In this document: piece after piece, positions 6,935 through 35,232 of the stretch | How the letters are laid out: every line of letters begins with the position of its first letter | How positions within the stretch are numbered: position 1 is the first letter of the stretch | Assembly: GCA_041652815.1 (NCBI GenBank) | Contig: JBAZGN010000004.1 | Coordinates: forward strand, 15,890 to 79,889 | Direction of reading: 5' to 3' | DNA from: Candidatus Omnitrophota bacterium | GTDB taxonomy: Bacteria; Omnitrophota; Gorgyraeia; Duberdicusellales; 4484-171 | DNA: 64,000 bases | Program-made: the position numbers and the translations under genes | Notes under the pieces: generated by a model | What the model saw: only the letters and a program-made list of their open reading frames with translations | The model's database searches: none | What the model was told of the DNA's origin: nothing

Positions 6935-8857
6935 ATGTTTACTTCTTCTTCAATGGACATATTGAGCATGATTGTCTTTAAGGACAAGATAGAAGAGGTT
7001 TTTTCCCGTCTTGTTAAGCTTGGTATTTTTCAACCCGTTGACATTCGAAAGATAGAAGAAGAAGTAAGCAGTCTTACTTCCCTTGAGATAGAAAAAGAAA
7101 GTACTGAATTGCAGGCGCTTGAAATCTCTTTTAGGGAAATTTCACGCAAGCTCAATCTTTCGATTGTGCCTTCCCGGGACATAGAATCTTTTTCCATTGA
7201 AAGCATAAAAGGAGTTTTTAAGTCACTCGACGAAAAACTTTCGGTAAGCTTATCGGAAAGGCAGGATTTGGTAGAGGAACTTAAAACTACTGAATCGATG
7301 TTTGCCCAAATCCGGGATTATTTTGTTTTTCCGCTGAAACGTGGAACTTTCTATTCTTTTCTTCAGGTTAATCTCGGCAAGGTAGATGAGAAAAACATAC
7401 CGGTGCTTGAGCGAAGCCTTCGTGAAATTCCGCATCTCTTCTATCCGATTAGAAAACAGGATACTTTCATAGTTACGCTAATCATAGGTTTACGAAGGGA
7501 TAGGGTTGTTATTGAAAAAATTCTAAAAGATGTTGCGTGGCAAGAAATAGATTTTCCTGAGAATGCCCGGGGGTTATCCGGTGATGTTGAAACCAAATTA
7601 AAAGATAAAATAGAAGGGTGCAAGAAACGTATAGCCGAGATAGATCAGCATATAAAAAAACAGGCGCAGGAAAGCCAGGGAATCTTAAGTAAAATACGTG
7701 CGTTTATCGTTTTGAAAAAATCTTTAATCGAGGCAAAAAAATATTCTTACGCGACAGACAAAACCGTTATACTTTCAGGTTGGGTATTGCATAAGGATAG
7801 GGATAAAGTAACTAATGAAATAAAAAATATAGCCGGTGTTTCGTATATTGAGAAAAAAAGAGCAGAAGATTTAAATATTGCAAAAGAGGATATCCCGGTG
7901 CGTCTCGAGCATAACGCGATATTTAAGCCTTTTGAACTTCTTATAAATTCATACGGCATTCCTCGTTACGGAACAATTGACCCTACCATATTTGTTGCGA
8001 TCAGCTTTTTAGTCATGTTTGGTGCAATGTTCGGAGATTTAGGCCAGGGGTTGTCGCTTGCATTTGTCGGCTTGCTCATAAAAAGAGCCAAAAATATAAA
8101 AATAAAGCAGGCCTCAACGCTTCTTGTTTACTGCGGTATAAGTTCGGCTATTTTCGGCGCTCTTTACGGAAGTGTTTTCGGATATGAAGAGATAATTCCC
8201 GCTATCTGGATAAGGCCGATGGAAAATATTTTAGAGATTTTTAAAATAAGTGTAATGTTTGGCATAATAATTATTACTCTGGGTATATTGGTTAATGTAA
8301 TAAATGCGCTGCGGGATAAAGATTATATAAAGGCCCTGTTCGATAAATCCGGATTAATTACCGGAATAATTTACTGGCTTGCTATCGCGCTGACAAGTAA
8401 ATTGTTTGTTGCCGAGAAGAATATTCCCTCGATTTATCTGATTTTGATTTTCGCAGGGCTTGCCCTTATATTTCTAAAACCGGTCATAGAAACTACTTTT
8501 AAGAAGAAAAAAGAAAAAGAAAGCTTATTCGTTTCTTTTATGGAAAGCCTTGTGGATATTTTGGAAATAATAATGGGCTATCTTGCTAATACTGTTTCTT
8601 TTATACGTATTGCGGCGTTTTCTCTTGCCCACGCAGGCCTGTTTCTTGCGATTTTTGAGCTTTCTCGCCTGCTAAAAGATGTGGGAGGAGTACCTTTGTC
8701 AGCCCTGGTAATAATTTTAGGAAATATTCTTATAGTTTTACTGGAAGGCCTCGTTGTAAGCATACAGTCGCTTCGTTTAAATTATTATGAATTTTTTTCC
8801 AAGTTCTTTGTAACCGGCAAGCACGCTTATAAACCATTGACAATGAGTGAGCATTGA
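6935..8857 (+). CDS. atpI: V/A-type ATP synthase subunit I (a)
   Basis: 640 aa; N-terminal cytoplasmic coiled-coil half plus C-terminal multi-TM half with conserved 'SFIRIAAFSLAHAGL' arginine region. Confidence 0.85.
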   Translation: MFTSSSMDILSMIVFKDKIEEVFSRLVKLGIFQPVDIRKIEEEVSSLTSLEIEKESTELQALEISFREISRKLNLSIVPSRDIESFSIESIKGVFKSLDEKLSVSLSERQDLVEELKTTESMFAQIRDYFVFPLKRGTFYSFLQVNLGKVDEKNIPVLERSLREIPHLFYPIRKQDTFIVTLIIGLRRDRVVIEKILKDVAWQEIDFPENARGLSGDVETKLKDKIEGCKKRIAEIDQHIKKQAQESQGILSKIRAFIVLKKSLIEAKKYSYATDKTVILSGWVLHKDRDKVTNEIKNIAGVSYIEKKRAEDLNIAKEDIPVRLEHNAIFKPFELLINSYGIPRYGTIDPTIFVAISFLVMFGAMFGDLGQGLSLAFVGLLIKRAKNIKIKQASTLLVYCGISSAIFGALYGSVFGYEEIIPAIWIRPMENILEIFKISVMFGIIIITLGILVNVINALRDKDYIKALFDKSGLITGIIYWLAIALTSKLFVAEKNIPSIYLILIFAGLALIFLKPVIETTFKKKKEKESLFVSFMESLVDILEIIMGYLANTVSFIRIAAFSLAHAGLFLAIFELSRLLKDVGGVPLSALVIILGNILIVLLEGLVVSIQSLRLNYYEFFSKFFVTGKHAYKPLTMSEH

Positions 8858-29825: not shown

Positions 29826-30213
29826 ATGAACCCTGAAAGGGCTATCTAGATAGTTAAAAAAGGCTCCGACTCTCAATTTTTCCCCCCACCATTGTTAAAA
29901 TATTTTTAAAAATCGTGAAGCGAAAGAAGTAGGTTCTGATTTTATCAGGGGTTTTTGAGGTTGAGGAAAAGCCTATAAGGGTGTATACTGATCAATACCA
30001 GAAATCCTTGAATTAAAGTCAGTGATTTCTAGTATTTATTGCCCCGTCGTATATCGAGCGAAGGCGGGATTAATGGGGTGCGGCTACATTGCGAAATTTT
30101 ATACATTCATATCAAAATTGGATAAAAGTTATGGGTATACCTTTGCTGAAAGCGGTGAAGGTTTTTTAGTTTTTGGGCAGATATTATAAAAAATTATTAT
30201 TGAAAGGAGAAGC

Positions 30214-30561
30214 ATGGAAGATGTTAAAAAAATAACCGAAAAAATTAAAAAATTTCGCGACGATCGAGATTGGATGCAATTTCACGATCCTAAAAATATG
30301 GCTGTTTCAATTATTCTCGAAGCTTCTGAGTTGCTAGAGCACTTTCAATGGAAAACAATTGAGGAGGTGGAGGAGTATTCAAGGCAAAACAAAGGCGAGA
30401 TTAGAGACGAAATTGCTGACATTGCTTTATATCTTTTTGAATTAGCGGATAATCTAGGAATTAATTTAATCGATGCAATGGAGCAAAAACTCAAAAAAAA
30501 TGAAATGAAATATCCAATTGAAAAAGCTAAAGGAAAGCATACTAAATATAACAAATTATAA
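30214..30561 (+). CDS. MazG-like nucleoside triphosphate pyrophosphohydrolase (small, single-domain)
   Basis: 115 aa; 'EASELLEHFQWK' and 'EIADIALYLFELAD' EExxE/ExxD metal-binding helices; strong GGAG RBS. Confidence 0.7.
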   Translation: MEDVKKITEKIKKFRDDRDWMQFHDPKNMAVSIILEASELLEHFQWKTIEEVEEYSRQNKGEIRDEIADIALYLFELADNLGINLIDAMEQKLKKNEMKYPIEKAKGKHTKYNKL

Positions 30562-30564
30562 TTC

Positions 30565-33009
30565 ATGAGACTTTACTCTGGAAGCTCTGCCCAATTTATC
30601 CAAGATGTCATTCAAAATCAAATAGCAGAAAAATTAAAACTAGCTTTTTTTGATTACTTTCGTTTTTATCCCTCACCCGGAGAAATAAATTCATGGAGAA
30701 ATTCTTTGAGATCGATTTCTCAGACTTTTCAATATGCAAATTTATTAGACCACGGAATAATCCTTGAATACCAGTTACCGTTGACTTCCAAAAGATTAGA
30801 TTGCTTAATTTGTGGTAAAGATAAAGAAAATATAGATAATTCTGTTATTGTGGAGCTAAAGCAATGGGATAAATGTGAGGAGGCTATTGGAGAGAATGAG
30901 GTTTTGACTTGGCTGGGCGGCGCTAAAAGAGAAGTGCTGCATCCTTCAGTTCAAGTCGGTCAATATAAGATGTATTTAGAAGATACACATACTGCTTTTA
31001 ATGTTGACGAGAATCCTATTAGATTAAATGCATGTACCTACTTACATAACTATAGTTATTATTCCGCGGATGTTATTTTTTCTCGTAAATTTAAACAAGC
31101 ATTAGATTCCTATCCATTGTTTACAGCAGACGATGTTGACAAAATGAAAGATTATTTGCTAGACAGATTAGCTTCAGGAATGGGCATGGAAGTTCTCAAA
31201 AGAGTGGAGAAAAGCAAATACAAGCCAAGTAAGAAATTAATGGATCATGTTGGGTCGGTAGTAAAGAATAAATTGAAAGGTAAAGACGTAAAAATCTTAG
31301 GAGGAGTTCAAAATGACTATATCCTTCTAGATGAGCAGTTAATTGCGTACGATAAAGTTTTAGCTTTGGTAAAAAGGGGTTTTCATGATAAACAAAAGAA
31401 TATCCTAATAATTAGTGGTGGTCCAGGAACAGGTAAATCGGTCATAGCATTGAAACTCTTAGCTGATTTAAATGAAATGCATTACAACGCGCAATATGCA
31501 ACTGGTTCAAAGTCATTTACGGAAACATTACGAAAAATTGTTGGGACAAGAGCTGCTGCACAATTCAAATATTTTTTGAGTTATGCTGATGCCCAAAGTA
31601 ACGAAATAGATATATTAATTTGTGATGAAGCTCATAGGATACGCGAAAAAACGGTCCGCAGATACGGTAGACCTTCCGGTATAAAACAAGTCGAAGAGAT
31701 AATCCAAGCCGCAAAAGTAGTAGTGTTTCTAATTGATCAAGATCAAATTGTCCGCCCCGGAGAAATAGGTTCCAGTGATTTAATTAAAGAATATGCAAAT
31801 AAACATATTTGTAAAATATCGGAATATGAATTAGCGGCTCAATTTAGGTGTAATGGTTCTGACGCTTTTATAAATTGGGTGAACAATACTTTGGTTATTA
31901 GGAAAACTGCTAATGTTATATGGGATTTGCATGAAGAATTTGATTTCAAAATATTTACATCGCCCTTTGAGCTAGAAAAGGCTATCAGAAATAAAGTAGA
32001 TAAAGGGTATACGGGCAGAGTAACTGCAGGTTTTTGTTGGGAATGGAACTATCCCAAGGAAGATGGTACCTTGATAGACGATGTTATAATCGGTGATTAC
32101 AAACGCCCCTGGGATGCTAAGCATGACGCAAAAAAACTTGCTTTAGGGATACCGAAGGCTTCATTTTGGGCCTACGATCCTAATGGTATAAATCAAATAG
32201 GATGTATCTATACGGCTCAGGGATTTGAGTTTGATTATGTTGGTGTAATCTTTGGTGAAGATCTTAAGTATAACTTTGATGAGCAGAACTGGGTAGCTCA
32301 CAAAGAAAATTTTGCTGACTCTCAAGTTTTAAGAGCGAAGGATGAAGACTTACTTAAATACCTAAAAAATATTTATCGTGTTCTCTTGACCAGAGGCATA
32401 AAGGGTTGTTATGTTTATTTCATGGACAAGGATACCGAACGTTTTTTTAAATCGCGTATCGAAGGTGTACCTATTTATAAAGAAGAAACGCTTAAGCTTT
32501 CTGATTTAGTTACCGTGGAAGATCAATTGATCCATAAAATTGAGCAAGATATTGCCGAAAATCTTAAATATGTAGAGTATTTACCAGTTTATTCTTTAGA
32601 GGTTGCTGCCGGTAATTTTGGTCAAGCCATGAGTAGCGAAGAAGAGGGATGGATCAAGACAGATATTGGTAAAAAGTTGGATAAACGAATGTTTGTTGCA
32701 AGAGTTGTTGGTCATTCGATGGAGCCTTTAATTCCGGAAGGCAGGTACTGTATTTTTAGGTGGGGGGTTGAGGGGACTAGACAAAATAAGATTGTTTTAG
32801 TTCAGCATAATAGCATTGCTGATCCTGATACTGGAGGCAAATATACAGTTAAGAAATATACGAGCAAGAAAAAAATTGTTGATGGTGTAGCATGGGAGCA
32901 CGAAGCAATAAAACTTTTGCCATTAAATACAGCTTACAAGCCTATAGATATTCCTAATTCAGAAGAGGGTAGCTTTATTGTGATAGCTGAATTTATTAAG
33001 GTATTGTAA
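30565..33009 (+). CDS. Fusion: N-terminal PD-(D/E)xK-like region + DUF2075-type P-loop/DEAH SF1 helicase-like ATPase + C-terminal LexA/CI-type S24 autopeptidase domain
   Basis: D79 and E97-x-K99 in hydrophobic strands; Walker A 'GGPGTGKS' (285-292); Walker B 'ICDEAH' (352-357); 'YTAQGFEFDYVGVI' and 'VLLTRG' DUF2075 hallmarks; C-terminal 'VAAG' (A682-G683), 'GHSMEP' (S718), 'TVKKY' (K763/764) with LexA-like spacing. Confidence 0.75.
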   Translation: MRLYSGSSAQFIQDVIQNQIAEKLKLAFFDYFRFYPSPGEINSWRNSLRSISQTFQYANLLDHGIILEYQLPLTSKRLDCLICGKDKENIDNSVIVELKQWDKCEEAIGENEVLTWLGGAKREVLHPSVQVGQYKMYLEDTHTAFNVDENPIRLNACTYLHNYSYYSADVIFSRKFKQALDSYPLFTADDVDKMKDYLLDRLASGMGMEVLKRVEKSKYKPSKKLMDHVGSVVKNKLKGKDVKILGGVQNDYILLDEQLIAYDKVLALVKRGFHDKQKNILIISGGPGTGKSVIALKLLADLNEMHYNAQYATGSKSFTETLRKIVGTRAAAQFKYFLSYADAQSNEIDILICDEAHRIREKTVRRYGRPSGIKQVEEIIQAAKVVVFLIDQDQIVRPGEIGSSDLIKEYANKHICKISEYELAAQFRCNGSDAFINWVNNTLVIRKTANVIWDLHEEFDFKIFTSPFELEKAIRNKVDKGYTGRVTAGFCWEWNYPKEDGTLIDDVIIGDYKRPWDAKHDAKKLALGIPKASFWAYDPNGINQIGCIYTAQGFEFDYVGVIFGEDLKYNFDEQNWVAHKENFADSQVLRAKDEDLLKYLKNIYRVLLTRGIKGCYVYFMDKDTERFFKSRIEGVPIYKEETLKLSDLVTVEDQLIHKIEQDIAENLKYVEYLPVYSLEVAAGNFGQAMSSEEEGWIKTDIGKKLDKRMFVARVVGHSMEPLIPEGRYCIFRWGVEGTRQNKIVLVQHNSIADPDTGGKYTVKKYTSKKKIVDGVAWEHEAIKLLPLNTAYKPIDIPNSEEGSFIVIAEFIKVL

Positions 33010-33011
33010 AT

Positions 33012-33704
33012 ATGATTAAATCCGGAGATGTTATTTCTTATTTAGATATGTGCAAAGAAGAAGGAGTTAACCTCCAGCGAGGAATGAATTATCGATTACG
33101 AAGTGGATTTAGTGTTATTCTTATGAGCGTAAGGCTCGGTGCGCCATATGCTGATAAGGTTGAAGAAAATGGTAAAATTCTAATTTATGAAGGTCATGAT
33201 ATTCCTCAAACAAGTGGGGGGCCTATTCCGAAAAAAGTAGATCAGCCTAAGAATAATCCCGGAGGCAGCTTAACTCAAAATGGCTTATTTTATAAAGCGG
33301 CTTTAGAATATAAAGATAAGCGAAAAGATCCAGAGTTAGTTAAGGTCTACGAGAAAATACGATCAGGAATTTGGGCATATAACGGCATATTTAAATTGAT
33401 AGACTCATGGCAAGAGAATAGTAACGCAAGAAAGGTTTTTAAATTCAAGCTTAAGATGGTAGAGGAAGTTCAAAGAAGTGTGATTAAGCAAAAAGATATC
33501 GAGCACAATAGACTAATTCCAACTTCTGTGAAACTAGAAGTTTGGAAACGAGATAAAGGTAAATGTGTGGTGTGTGGTAGTGCTGATAATTTGCATTTTG
33601 ATCATATAATTCCTTATTCGAGAGGAGGGTCTTCGTTGGTTGCAAAAAACGTTCAATTGTTGTGTGCAAGACATAATATTGGGAAACGAGATAAGATTGA
33701 ATAA
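33012..33704 (+). CDS. HNH endonuclease with N-terminal putative modified-base-binding (SRA/YDG- or PUA-like) domain; candidate type IV restriction enzyme
   Basis: C-terminal 'CVVCGSADNLHFDHIIPYSRGG...NVQLLCARHN' Zn-HNH motif; N-terminal about 170 aa with 'G..hxYxG' core reminiscent of SRA; starts 3 nt after the helicase gene. Confidence 0.6.
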   Translation: MIKSGDVISYLDMCKEEGVNLQRGMNYRLRSGFSVILMSVRLGAPYADKVEENGKILIYEGHDIPQTSGGPIPKKVDQPKNNPGGSLTQNGLFYKAALEYKDKRKDPELVKVYEKIRSGIWAYNGIFKLIDSWQENSNARKVFKFKLKMVEEVQRSVIKQKDIEHNRLIPTSVKLEVWKRDKGKCVVCGSADNLHFDHIIPYSRGGSSLVAKNVQLLCARHNIGKRDKIE

Positions 33705-33757: not shown

Positions 33758-34165
33758 ATGTTCGACAAATTAGATTTCTTCCAACTTCTACCCCGTCTTC
33801 GACGTTCTAAATTCCGTTCCAAATTTAAACTCGACCAAAAGGATTTGGATTATATTGAAAAAGTGGGGATGGAGAAGATAAAACAGCATGCGCAGGATTT
33901 TATAGAAAAGCGGCTAGCGCCGGCAGAGCCGCCGAATGACGGAAGACAAACACCATTCAAGGGGCATCCGGTTTTTAAGGCACAGCATGCAACCGCCACT
34001 TGCTGCCGCAGTTGCCTTCTAAAATGGCATTCAATTCCTAAAGGCCGCGCGTTAACTGCTGATGAATGTCAGAAAATTATCGATATCTTACTCGCCTGGA
34101 TTGTCTGGCAAACCAATTCCACCCCGGAGGTGGAACGCAGCACAAACCTAAATCCCACCGCGTAG
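33758..34165 (+). CDS. DUF4186 family protein
   Basis: 'RSKFRSKF', 'RLAPAEPPNDGRQTPFKGHPVFKAQHATATCCRSCLLKWH' match the DUF4186 hallmark as remembered; start assigned to the internal ATG. Confidence 0.55.
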   Translation: MFDKLDFFQLLPRLRRSKFRSKFKLDQKDLDYIEKVGMEKIKQHAQDFIEKRLAPAEPPNDGRQTPFKGHPVFKAQHATATCCRSCLLKWHSIPKGRALTADECQKIIDILLAWIVWQTNSTPEVERSTNLNPTA

Positions 34166-34244: not shown

Positions 34245-34550
34245 ATGAAGGTATTAAAAGGTATTTTATCGGAGAGTAAAGAATACTATCTTAGCATTAA
34301 GCGAAAGATAGAAAAAAGGCTCACAGAGCTACCTAAAGGTAGTATTAAGGAGCGAAGAATTTCAGGACAAAAATATTATTACCTGCAACAGCGAGTCGGG
34401 AAGAAGATATCACACAAGTATTTAGGGAAGCAAAAGCCAGAGCTTATTATAAAACAAATAAAAGAACGGGATGTTTTGAAACTTGAGTTAAAAAAAGTAA
34501 TCGCGTCCCTTAAAATGATACGAAAGTCAGAAGGCAAAAAACATGGTTGA
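34245..34550 (+). CDS. Small basic protein, putative partner/antitoxin of the downstream nucleotidyltransferase
   Basis: 101 aa, Lys/Arg-rich; strong RBS; stop overlaps the downstream start (ATGGTTGA). Confidence 0.5.
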   Translation: MKVLKGILSESKEYYLSIKRKIEKRLTELPKGSIKERRISGQKYYYLQQRVGKKISHKYLGKQKPELIIKQIKERDVLKLELKKVIASLKMIRKSEGKKHG

Positions 34551-35232
34551 ATCAGTTAATAAAATACTTAAGGTATTTGCTGACAATGGTCTTTTTGAAG
34601 AAGGAGTAGAGCTTATTGGAAGCTGGTGTTTCCACCTCTATCAAAAACATCTGGGCGCAAAAAGTTTTCCATTGAGGACGCAAGATATTGATTTTCTGAT
34701 ACCTAATCCTTATCGTGGGAAGGAGCATAAAGATTTTATAGACCAGCTAAAGGAATTGGGTTTTAATTACGATTTTAGTAATAATGGGTCTTTATATCTT
34801 TGGAACGCTGATTTTAAAATAGAATTTATAACTCCCCTAAAGGGCCGTGGATTAGAAAAGAGCATAAAGATTAAGGCGTTTGGTTTTAAAGCCATACCGC
34901 TAAGATTCGTTGATTTATTGTTAAACCACCCTATCAATATAAACGATAATGGCATTAATATTAAAATACCTAATCCAGCTAATTTTTGTCTTCACAAACT
35001 TATAGTCGCATCGCGTAGAAAAAAATTAGACAAAGCTTCAAAGGATTTACAACAGGCAATTTGTACCTCTGTAATCTTGGATAAACAAGAAGTTAAGAAA
35101 TTATTTGAGACTTTGCCAAAAAAATGGAAAAAAGCGATTTTAAAAATGCTAGAAAAGTCCAAAAAAGAATTGCCTTTATTACTTGAAGAAATAAATCAAT
35201 TAGAATTTACACTACAAGGTACTAAAAAATAA
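34543..35232 (+). CDS. Nucleotidyltransferase-fold protein, AbiEii/DUF1814-like (putative type IV TA toxin / Abi effector)
   Basis: 'IGSWCFHLY...RTQDIDFLI' resembles the G[GS]...R.S.DIDF nucleotidyltransferase motif; translationally coupled to the upstream small gene. Confidence 0.5.
   Translation: MVESVNKILKVFADNGLFEEGVELIGSWCFHLYQKHLGAKSFPLRTQDIDFLIPNPYRGKEHKDFIDQLKELGFNYDFSNNGSLYLWNADFKIEFITPLKGRGLEKSIKIKAFGFKAIPLRFVDLLLNHPININDNGINIKIPNPANFCLHKLIVASRRKKLDKASKDLQQAICTSVILDKQEVKKLFETLPKKWKKAILKMLEKSKKELPLLLEEINQLEFTLQGTKK

Follow-up and report, generated by a model that had tools for sequence, protein, structure and literature searches.

SRA-HNH enzymes are a known anti-phage restriction type. 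ScoA3IV, TbiR51I and TagI share this architecture, depend on 5mC or 5hmC, and function as single genes (PMC4333417, PMC6212794, PMC6765204). The TagI pocket is formed by Tyr55 and Tyr67 plus a carboxylate (PMC6212794). According to the literature, ScoA3IV and TbiR51I, once purified, are poor at telling modified from unmodified DNA in vitro. HHPV4I is an SRA-wH-HNH protein whose m6A dependence comes through the winged-helix domain and not through the SRA domain (PMC10101028), and ScoMcrA (SBD-SRA-HNH, PDB 5zmm) is a type IV enzyme with SRA and HNH domains. In addition, Lutz et al. put forward a coupling between modification-dependent enzymes and DUF2075 NTPases and described AmaNI, a caspase-SRA-HNH fusion (PMC6765204).

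We identified a gene at 33012..33704 (+ strand) of the window, the whole 64-kb stretch of DNA that was analysed, whose two-domain product is a likely type IV modification-dependent restriction endonuclease of SRA-HNH architecture. Its unusual part is its place as the last gene of a recurring operon, behind a MazG-like gene and a helicase gene with an S24 domain.

The SRA-HNH gene and its family

The reading frame has an ATG start and encodes 230 aa plus a stop, as the preliminary description of this DNA had it, and an independent gene call on a public contig gives the identical 230-aa product. A 98%-identical protein matches at E 6.7e-149, and 7,924 of 8,000 scored candidates were retrieved at E <= 1e-3; 33012..33704 is thus not a chance ORF. 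It is a real and strongly conserved gene, with a family of at least 7,900 homologues, a figure that is a lower bound. Relatives with 61-84% identity are spread across bacterial phyla and archaea, including very distant lineages such as Bathyarchaeia and Promethearchaeota. The hosts are uncultivated anaerobic bacteria and archaea, whereas the characterised SRA-HNH enzymes come from Actinobacteria. Where public sources name members of the family at all, the names are only "HNH endonuclease" or "hypothetical protein".

Among 80 genomic loci, 77 carry the gene on its own amid unrelated, mostly housekeeping genes, which is the pattern expected for a type IV enzyme without a methyltransferase. A search of the 64-kb window for C5-methyltransferase motifs gave none. 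A scan of 2.9 million viral contigs in IMG/VR returned no relatives, and a phage origin was rejected on this basis. We also found small XRE-type HTH genes directly 5' of the SRA-HNH gene in several loci, and the longer family members carry HIT, PemK/MazF or D12 N6-methyltransferase N-termini.

Reader and nuclease domains

The N-terminal SRA (SAD/SRA, "YDG") domain spans residues about 5-150 (33024..33461, + strand). The preliminary description had compared two strings, ENGKILIYEGHD (residues 52-63) and LTQNGLFYKAAL (residues 87-98), with the SRA fold, and had held a PUA/EVE fold equally possible. Both strings are present, and the SRA comparison was borne out. Pfam SAD_SRA matches the window protein along almost its whole profile (positions 28-145 of 148; E 1.9e-5), at 24.9 bits, under the Pfam gathering score of 30.7 bits. 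The same profile matches 31/31 family members (best E 6.7e-9) and was the sole N-terminal Pfam family matched among them. The AF2 model of the protein is of moderate confidence (pLDDT 73.8). Foldseek searches of the PDB with this model returned plant SUVH SRA domains as the best 14 matches, the first being the SUVH5 SRA-5mC DNA complex (E 7.8e-8, probability 1.00). SUVH5 complexes with 5mC or 5hmC DNA gave E 7.8e-8 to 7.6e-7 and target-normalised TM-scores of 0.61-0.68, and they were followed by KYP, SUVH6/9, ScoMcrA (E 1e-5), UHRF1/2 and AspBHI. Comparison of the predicted structure with SRA, EVE, YTH and ASCH folds, a check put forward in the preliminary description, therefore recovered SRA, and no EVE, YTH or ASCH match was found in Pfam or among the listed Foldseek matches. 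An EVE or PUA N-terminal domain of the kind that marks VcaM4I and TspA15I was likewise absent from the Pfam results and the listed top 50 Foldseek matches. By profile and model, we regard the N-domain as an SRA domain, neither EVE nor generic PUA.

HMMER alignments to SUVH9 and SUVH6 place Q22 on the thumb Gln, Y46, D48 and Y59 on the pocket Tyr/Asp/Tyr, and Y123-N-G on the YDG motif, a YNG version at 123-125. Y46 and D48 are invariant among 31 sequences, and Q22 and Y59 are conserved in at least 90%. By these alignments, the four are candidate base-flipping residues of a putative flipped-base pocket with a gap-filling thumb. Their retention across phyla argues for a functional cytosine pocket. 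Plant SUVH5, SUVH6, SUVH9 and KRYPTONITE, the best sequence and structure matches of the N-domain, share the thumb Gln, the Tyr/Asp/Tyr pocket and the YDG-like motif; these are eukaryotic chromatin readers, however, fused to a SET methyltransferase and not to a nuclease.

A linker of about 20 residues, without an extra winged-helix domain in the model, leads to the HNH beta-beta-alpha-metal nuclease domain at residues about 171-230 (33522..33701, + strand). Every Zn-HNH string claimed in the preliminary description was located between residues 185 and 222: C185-x2-C188, LHFDHIIPY (194-202), N213 and LLCARHN (216-222). Pfam HNH (30.2 bits) and HNH_5 (29.5 bits) each pass their gathering cut-offs. 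The CCCH zinc site (C185, C188, C218, H221) and the catalytic D197-H198, N213 and N222 are invariant among the 31 sequences. The domain is of the PF01844/PF14279 type with a canonical D-H and is closest to IscB/Cas9 HNH domains, the best PDB sequence match being the IscB HNH domain (E 4.6e-5).

The protein resembles ScoA3IV/Sco5333, TbiR51I/Tbis1 and TagI in its two Tyr walls plus carboxylate, SUVH5-like thumb Gln, solitary occurrence and lack of a cognate methyltransferase. Sequence homology to TagI (6ghs) was rejected, as neither phmmer nor a 31-sequence family profile found it at E <= 10, and ScoMcrA is a fold-level match only, so that membership of the SRA-HNH type IV enzymes rests on architecture. 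ScoMcrA differs in its extra sulfur-binding domain, phosphorothioate dependence and much larger size. The HNH subtype also differs from that of TagI, which has Ala before the catalytic His in place of the D-H of the window protein and is longer (311 aa versus 230 aa). The one alignment of the TagI nuclease, a weak one (E 0.37), was to a neighbour protein of HNH_2 type, whereas the window protein matches Pfam HNH/HNH_5. TagI being undetected and the HNH types being different, specificity is not simply transferable, and the SRA-HNH architecture may have arisen independently of TagI. The analysis thus establishes the fold, the order of the domains, the conserved residues, a distribution in cells and not in viruses, and the mostly solitary occurrence of the gene. 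We read the 33012..33704 protein as a new, uncharacterised and divergent addition to the known SRA-HNH type IV restriction enzymes.

By analogy with characterised SRA domains, ScoA3IV and TagI, the SRA domain would scan duplex DNA and flip a 5-substituted cytosine (5mC or 5hmC) into the pocket between the Y46 and Y59 walls, where D48 would read its Watson-Crick edge while Q22 fills the gap in the helix. Binding would position the zinc-stabilised HNH domain (D197-H198, N213, N222) near the modified base, and the nuclease would then nick the DNA, or as a dimer cut it, a short distance away. Modified-cytosine phage or plasmid DNA would be destroyed in this way, and the host would be spared because its own DNA is without that modification.

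The MazG and helicase-S24 operon

The operon's first gene (30214..30561, + strand) encodes a 115-aa MazG-like all-alpha NTP pyrophosphatase (Pfam MazG-like E 6.3e-20; PDB 4qgp E 7.6e-26). This protein is homologous to DCTPP1/RS21-C6 (6sqw E 2.8e-17; 7mu5 E 1.5e-14), and DCTPP1 acts on 5-methyl-dCTP (PMC4491611). A terminator-like hairpin plus T-run at 30139..30172 (+ strand), found by a consensus scan only, is the probable 5' limit of the transcription unit. The same scan gave no + strand terminator-like sites between 30172 and 35400 and one - strand site inside the SRA-HNH ORF (33075-33060). Internal promoters or terminators splitting the operon were rejected, none scoring above shuffle expectation.

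Three nucleotides after the MazG gene, the helicase gene (30565..33009, + strand, 814 aa) begins; Pfam, PADLOC, alignments and a model of the N-domain all bear on its identity. The preliminary description had called this gene a helicase with an S24 domain, and both parts were recovered: a DUF2075/SLFN-g3 helicase core (PF09848, E 2.2e-91) at residues 278-621 (31396-32427) and a LexA/UmuD-type S24 domain (Peptidase_S24, E 1.5e-9) at residues 674-804 (32584-32976). PADLOC models PDC-S41, AbiO (2e-15) and Nhi (E 2.6e-14) match. The nearest kin, Nhi, Nhi-like and AbiO proteins, have a DUF2075 core and a roughly 250-aa N-terminal domain; the window helicase differs from Nhi/AbiO in its C-terminal S24 domain and its DCTPP1-like MazG partner. 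The linker preceding the S24 dyad contains a look-alike of the LexA-type Ala-Gly self-cleavage site, VAAG, at A682-G683 in LEVAAGNFG (32608..32613, + strand). The dyad itself lies 3' of it, with Ser718 (32716-32718, in GHSMEP) and Lys763 (32851-32853, in TVKKY). Among 22 aligned S24-bearing helicases, AAG, ACG or PCG sites are common in this linker, and G-x-S-M with (T/S)(V/I)K-x-Y, the Ser-Lys dyad, is kept in 21/22. Knowledge of LexA and UmuD suggests that A682-G683 and S718/K763 may serve in self-cleavage. Residues 1-250 (30565-31314) form an N-domain that is possibly a PD-(D/E)xK nuclease; its confident model (pLDDT 85.6) has the order alpha-beta-beta-beta-alpha-beta, in which D79 begins strand 2 while strand 3 bears E97 and K99. 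The nuclease fold was not confirmed by Foldseek, whose best PDB match reached only a non-significant E 0.12, nor by Pfam, where no match was found.

The SRA-HNH gene was said to start 3 nt after the helicase gene, which is right counted base to base (TAA at 33007-33009, a 2-nt spacer). This spacing suggests that the two genes may be co-translated. In the window and its close relatives, the SRA-HNH gene is the last cistron after the DCTPP1-like MazG and DUF2075-S24 helicase genes, unlike the solitary genes of ScoA3IV and TagI. The three-gene block occurs at about ten loci (the window, L057, L078, L082, L135, L145, L162-L164 and L165/L166), where the helicase and SRA-HNH genes elsewhere overlap by 4 nt or 1 nt or are separated by 6-nt gaps and in one case by 41 nt. 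At L162 the MazG and SRA-HNH proteins are 89% and 84% identical to those of the window, while the intervening helicase is only 39-45% identical; a very different helicase allele between two conserved flanking genes is a feature of some of the block loci. An SRA-HNH gene lies immediately 3' of 6/22 S24-bearing helicases versus 0/58 without S24 (Fisher p = 2.5e-4, with no phylogenetic correction). The S24 domains of the linked helicases are of two divergent types, and the helicase-linked SRA-HNH genes are polyphyletic within their family.

The MazG-helicase pair itself is common: of 80 helicase loci, 56 have a MazG homologue next to the helicase, which lies directly upstream in 55. No report linking DUF2075 to MazG or to S24 was found in the literature searched. 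Other HNH genes also adjoin this module, one of them encoding a nuclease homologous to the EVE-HNH enzyme VcaM4I. SRA kinship for the N-domain of neighbouring X-HNH_2 genes was rejected, since the profile-profile comparison aligned the HNH part only (probability 6.9%). A uniform third gene 3' of S24-helicases was also rejected; the genes there are heterogeneous and include an MFS transporter, a reverse transcriptase, PhoH-PIN and a UvrD-type nuclease.

The coupling to the helicase that the preliminary description proposed therefore holds as an operon link conserved in the closest relatives and recurring elsewhere, and does not extend to the family as a whole. Most members are solitary, so the coupling is real but lineage-specific. 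The helicase is absent from 77/80 SRA-HNH loci and the SRA-HNH gene from 74/80 helicase loci; a general link was rejected, with the helicase adjacent in only 2/80 genome loci. Where both are present, the SRA-HNH gene may lie upstream, downstream or with one gene between. At L001 an S24 domain 6.5 kb from the SRA-HNH gene is carried by a different, TnsA-like protein, and no S24-SRA-HNH fusion, sought as proof of coupling, was found among the longer family members. Overall, the parts of the preliminary interpretation that could be tested in silico held, and they support it.

Alternative readings and significance

The SRA-HNH enzyme most likely can act alone, with its neighbours cooperating at most as an add-on. 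A single integrated defence against modified cytosine, made of the MazG-like protein, the DUF2075-S24 helicase and the SRA-HNH enzyme, is possible, although we hold it the less probable account. The SRA-HNH enzyme would then be modification sensor and first cutter, needing its partners for activity or gaining strongly from them; the helicase, perhaps aided by a nuclease in its own N-domain, would process the cut DNA, the S24 domain would either be a switch that cleaves itself in response to damage or RecA* or serve as a docking module, and the DCTPP1-like enzyme would destroy modified dCTP. The tight spacing, the recurrence of the block, the mosaic loci, the polyphyly of the linked genes, the S24 bias across two divergent S24 types, the other HNH genes beside the module and the activity of DCTPP1 on 5-methyl-dCTP all favour such a system, as do the DUF2075 coupling proposal and the caspase-SRA-HNH fusion (PMC6765204). 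In the McaZI group (DUF3427-DUF3883), too, a modification-dependent nuclease lies beside a DUF2075 NTPase, but its reader and nuclease domains differ from those of the window protein and the coupling there is only proposed; AmaNI similarly joins a peptidase domain to SRA-HNH, but as a caspase fused to the nuclease and not as S24 on a helicase. Against integration stand the many loci with one gene and not the other, the variable position of the SRA-HNH gene, the heterogeneous genes 3' of other S24-helicases, the lack of an S24 fusion, and the fact that Nhi-type helicases and SRA-HNH enzymes each function as single genes; defence-island clustering alone could yield recurrent adjacency. More doubtful still is the specific proposal that the block is a previously undescribed defence against modified-cytosine phages in which S24 self-cleavage frees the helicase. 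Here the pyrophosphatase would clear modified dCTP from the nucleotide pool and the SRA-HNH enzyme would recognise and nick 5mC/5hmC DNA; the resulting damage, via RecA* or ssDNA, would trigger S24 self-cleavage, and the helicase thus released, possibly with a nuclease of its own, would destroy the invader. In other lineages, different reader-HNH genes could take the place of the SRA-HNH gene. That the three genes form one system at all is suggested by their arrangement.

The remaining alternatives concern the protein itself. It is unlikely that the SRA domain is a degenerate or repurposed DNA binder and the HNH domain a nickase or nuclease directed at something other than modified cytosine, such as another modification (m6A or a hypermodified base, for example), a structure in the DNA, or unmodified DNA if expression is kept tightly controlled. 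HHPV4I, with its SRA domain and m6A dependence via other domains, offers a precedent, and ScoA3IV and TbiR51I cut unmodified DNA in vitro; the sub-threshold Pfam score, the PemK/MazF- or HIT-fused members, and the XRE-type HTH genes, which suggest a need for tight control, point the same way. However, the thumb Gln and Tyr/Asp/Tyr pocket are conserved across phyla, the short linker leaves no extra winged-helix domain, and the closest structural matches are 5mC- or 5hmC-bound SRA domains. We consider a selfish, mobile, free-standing HNH homing-type endonuclease highly improbable. It would account for single-gene insertions between housekeeping genes and for unusual conservation across phyla, and the solitary, patchy occurrence in very distant lineages at 61-84% identity fits it, but the same pattern fits horizontally transferred defence genes. 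Moreover, no relatives were found in the viral contigs scanned, the gene does not lie inside host genes or introns, and a conserved modified-base reader domain is foreign to homing endonucleases. The slightest chance of all attaches to an EVE, ASCH, YTH or generic PUA reader in place of SRA: distant resemblance is expected, SRA lying within the PUA-like superfold, but no such family appears in Pfam among the 31 members, and each of the 50 best Foldseek matches listed is an SRA domain, a protein that contains one, or a larger assembly with UHRF1; the EVE-HNH structure 6yex is absent from that list.

In conclusion, the analysis identifies a very large and very conserved SRA-HNH family as candidate 5mC/5hmC-dependent restriction enzymes, with an SRA domain nearer to plant SUVH readers than to characterised bacterial enzymes. 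The family is a possible source of new epigenetic mapping tools and offers a further piece of evidence on the bacterial ancestry of eukaryotic SRA domains. The operon provides a concrete case for the proposed cooperation of modification-dependent nucleases with DUF2075 (Schlafen-type) helicases, and a helicase with a LexA-like self-cleavage domain would tie phage defence to DNA-damage sensing.

The SRA-HNH gene and its two domains

We identified the SRA-HNH gene as an ORF of 230 aa at 33012-33704 on the + strand, beginning with ATG, where a preliminary description had placed it and with all of the motifs quoted for it present in the translation. This ORF is a genuine gene, since a protein 98% identical to it matches at E 6.7e-149, the homologue search yielded at least 7,924 homologues at E <= 1e-3 (7,924 of 8,000 scored candidates), and a public metagenome contig carries an identical gene with an agreeing gene call. 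In a protein library clustered at 50% identity, 171 representatives match it at E <= 1e-30.

The C-terminal zinc-HNH nuclease was borne out, with Pfam HNH (30.2 bits) and HNH_5 (29.5 bits) both above their cut-offs over residues 185-229. An alignment of 31 homologues (69-84% identity) shows no variation at the zinc-binding CCCH residues (C185, C188, C218 and H221) or at the catalytic D197-H198, N213 and N222. The nearest solved HNH by sequence is that of an IscB (E 4.6e-5).

The window protein matches SAD_SRA over residues 20-150 (profile positions 28-145 of 148, E 1.9e-5) with 24.9 bits, below the Pfam gathering score of 30.7 bits. Each of the 31 homologues has a SAD_SRA match with E <= 1e-3, the best being 6.7e-9; Pfam found no other family in their N-terminal parts. 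When the AlphaFold2 model (pLDDT 73.8) was searched against the PDB, the first 14 matches were plant SUVH SRA domains, the top eight being SUVH5 SRA with 5mC or 5hmC DNA (E 7.8e-8 to 7.6e-7, target-normalised TM-score 0.61-0.68, probability 1.00), followed after the SUVH matches by the type IV enzyme ScoMcrA, UHRF1/UHRF2 and AspBHI. The HMMER family profile also matched SUVH9 (E 7.6e-4), and SUVH6 could be aligned as well; in these alignments the near-invariant NLQRGMN corresponds to the SUVH Q(A/S)GIDY thumb, PYAD to the pocket strand GGY(E/D)D, IYEGHD to TYTGQGG and YNG to the YDG motif. Because of the uniform SAD_SRA matches of the homologues, the SUVH structure matches and the HMMER alignments, the N-terminal domain is firmly predicted to be an SRA domain despite the sub-gathering score, as the earlier suggestion of an SRA-like reader had it. 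An EVE or PUA fold, which had been given equal likelihood, found no support from Pfam or from Foldseek, and the proposed structure-prediction check, run as the AlphaFold2 model with Foldseek, returned SRA.

Characterised SRA pockets consist of two tyrosines and a carboxylate (Tyr55 and Tyr67 in TagI; PMC6212794), and a thumb glutamine is used both by bacterial SRA-HNH proteins and by SUVH5 (PMC4333417). The counterparts predicted by sequence alignment are Y46, Y59, D48 and Q22, with Y46 and D48 invariant and Q22 and Y59 at least 90% conserved in the 31 homologues.

The domain architecture is that of ScoA3IV, TbiR51I and TagI, type IV enzymes which are toxic in dcm+ E. coli, bind DNA with 5mC and restrict phage with 5hmC. 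However, TagI was not found at E <= 10 with either the window protein or the family profile as query, and its nuclease aligned weakly (E 0.37) solely with an HNH_2-type neighbour protein as query, whereas the window nuclease is a Pfam HNH/HNH_5 match; the residue before the catalytic His is Ala in TagI and Asp here. Because of these differences, the family does not count as a close relative of the three enzymes, and we place the protein with them by architecture and inferred mechanism, not as an orthologue; the architecture possibly arose by an independent fusion of SRA and HNH. Existing names for homologues, where any, are "HNH endonuclease" or "hypothetical protein". The evidence supports a candidate type IV enzyme in an operon with the helicase, as had been proposed, and a divergent, very widespread new addition to a known kind of enzyme.

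Distribution and solitary loci

Homologues of 61-84% identity were recovered from Omnitrophota, Chloroflexota/Dehalococcoidia, Desulfobacterota, Nitrospirota, Acidobacteriota, Bacteroidota, Atribacterota, Bathyarchaeia and Promethearchaeota, and a search of 2.9 million viral contigs revealed no relatives. The gene is solitary in 77 of 80 genome loci, with unrelated, mostly housekeeping neighbours (aminoacyl-tRNA synthetases, holA, SDR, CoA-transferases), as would be expected for a methyltransferase-free type IV gene that spreads horizontally. No C5-methyltransferase motif was found within the 64-kb window. In longer family members (P0123, P0150 and P0200) the N-terminus is extended by a domain of the HIT nucleotide hydrolase, the PemK/MazF toxin or the D12 N6-adenine methyltransferase type, the last in a truncated protein that ends before the HNH domain.

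In at least six loci the SRA-HNH start is adjoined or overlapped by a small HTH gene of the XRE type; such genes, of about 80 aa, lie at solitary SRA-HNH starts in loci L007, L054, L066 and L070 (about 7760-8000), L061 and L072, and resemble restriction-system controller proteins or antitoxins. In the window, the next gene downstream of SRA-HNH is a DUF4186 gene (33758-34165), and after it comes a pair of overlapping genes, DUF6788 and NTP_transf_8 (nucleotidyltransferase) (34245-34550 and 34543-35232), which resembles a toxin-antitoxin module; L007 has a homologous pair some 5.5 kb from its SRA-HNH gene. Over the whole window, G+C is 38.8%, and GATC and CTAG occur far less often than base composition predicts (observed/expected 0.26 and 0.19).

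The MazG-like gene and the S24 helicase

The MazG-like gene (30214-30561) lies 3 nt ahead of the helicase gene and is homologous to DCTPP1/RS21-C6 (dCTP pyrophosphatase 1, PDB 6sqw, E 2.8e-17), which has been implicated in the metabolism of 5-methyl-dCTP (PMC4491611). A terminator-like hairpin precedes it, and no further terminator-like site was found on the + strand from this gene through 35400. Across 80 metagenomic helicase loci, a MazG homologue adjoins the helicase in 56, directly upstream in 55, and crude ORF clustering recovered 50 of these. MazG and the DUF2075 helicase form a conserved two-gene module; in the literature searched, no paper describes it or connects DUF2075 with MazG or with S24.

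The helicase carries a 250-aa N-terminal domain (30565-31314), a DUF2075/SLFN-g3 core (Pfam E 2.2e-91) and an S24 peptidase domain (Peptidase_S24, E 1.5e-9). Its matches in PADLOC are the PDC-S41, AbiO and Nhi models. Helicases of the DUF2075 type are often assumed to have an N-terminal PD-(D/E)xK nuclease. The AlphaFold model of the N-terminal domain is confident (pLDDT 85.6) and has the order alpha-beta-beta-beta-alpha-beta, with D79 opening strand 2 and E97-x-K99 in strand 3, which fits that fold; Foldseek found no PDB match better than E 0.12, and Pfam none. On this model the domain may be either a very divergent PD-(D/E)xK nuclease or a fold without a solved relative.

The LexA/UmuD-type S24 domain is fused at the helicase C-terminus (32584-32976, residues 674-804), and such a tail is present in 19 of the 80 surveyed helicases. 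Within an alignment of 22 (these 19 with the window, L057 and L078), the G-x-S-M serine and (T/S)(V/I)K-x-Y lysine are retained in 21, and most keep an AAG, ACG or PCG motif, the type of position where LexA and UmuD self-cleave. The window domain has VAAG at 680-683 (predicted site A682-G683) and keeps the S718 and K763 dyad. In L001 (2-1471), 6.5 kb upstream of SRA-HNH, a different protein, which has a TnsA-like endonuclease domain, ends in a related S24 domain; because S24 is found on both proteins, it may be a transferable module of defence nucleases.

Other genes recur beside the MazG-helicase module. An X-HNH_2 gene of 310 aa is found in eight loci (L087, L088, L111, L123, L130, L139, L147 and L154); its nuclease is homologous to that of the EVE-HNH type IV enzyme VcaM4I (E 4.4e-11), and no known family, nor a detectable SRA, was found in its N-terminal domain of about 190 aa. 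A short HNH protein occurs in four loci. A conserved gene pair, encoding a TPR protein of about 295 aa and a protein of 268 aa that has no annotation, lies upstream of MazG in nine loci (L098, L101, L104, L112-L115, L136 and L141), the TPR cluster occurring in 11.

Linkage of SRA-HNH to the MazG-helicase module

It is plausible, though doubtful, that MazG, helicase-S24 and SRA-HNH act as one integrated system. Gene spacing is tight, as had been noted: the helicase ORF stops with TAA at 33007-33009, 2 nt before the SRA-HNH ATG, and a helicase-S24 gene precedes the 87% identical P0003 with the same spacer. Linkage recurs in several SRA-HNH lineages, the helicase-linked genes not being one clade, and modified cytosine is a theme common to the components. 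SRA-HNH lies immediately downstream of an S24-helicase in six loci (the window, L057, L078, L082, L135 and L145, the last two with divergent LexA-like S24) and of none of 58 S24-less helicases, a correlation with the S24 tail of p = 2.5e-4 by Fisher's exact test when kinship between loci is ignored. The block also persists across a swap of helicase allele, since the 84% identical P0002 sits in the same gene order with MazG 89% and helicase 39-45% identical to the window's, while its downstream flank differs. Lutz et al. (PMC6765204) had proposed that other modification-dependent enzymes couple with DUF2075 NTPases, and they also described a caspase-SRA-HNH fusion.

On the other hand, SRA-HNH and the helicase are mostly found without each other: the metagenomic survey has SRA-HNH in 6 of 80 helicase loci, and P0004 (76% identical) is an SRA-HNH without linkage to a helicase. 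Its position varies, being upstream in L102 and L110 and separated by a BglII-like nuclease gene in L124, and other S24-helicases are followed by genes of various kinds. No S24-SRA-HNH fusion was found among the longer family members, which bear HIT, PemK/MazF or N6-methyltransferase N-termini instead, and both Nhi-type helicases and SRA-HNH enzymes function as single genes.

The BglII-like restriction endonuclease gene lies directly 5' of SRA-HNH in L102 (263-874) and L124 (6455-7084; Pfam E 1.8e-41), both of which also have the MazG-helicase module. Compared with window 30214-33704, L162 and L163 are mosaic, with MazG 89% and SRA-HNH 84% identical and the helicase-S24 between them 39-45%; these identities suggest cassette exchange or rapid helicase evolution.

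We conclude that SRA-HNH is most probably an autonomous module recruited by this lineage into the MazG-helicase operon. The operon-level hypothesis is a more novel reading than the SRA-HNH enzyme itself, and it is directly testable.
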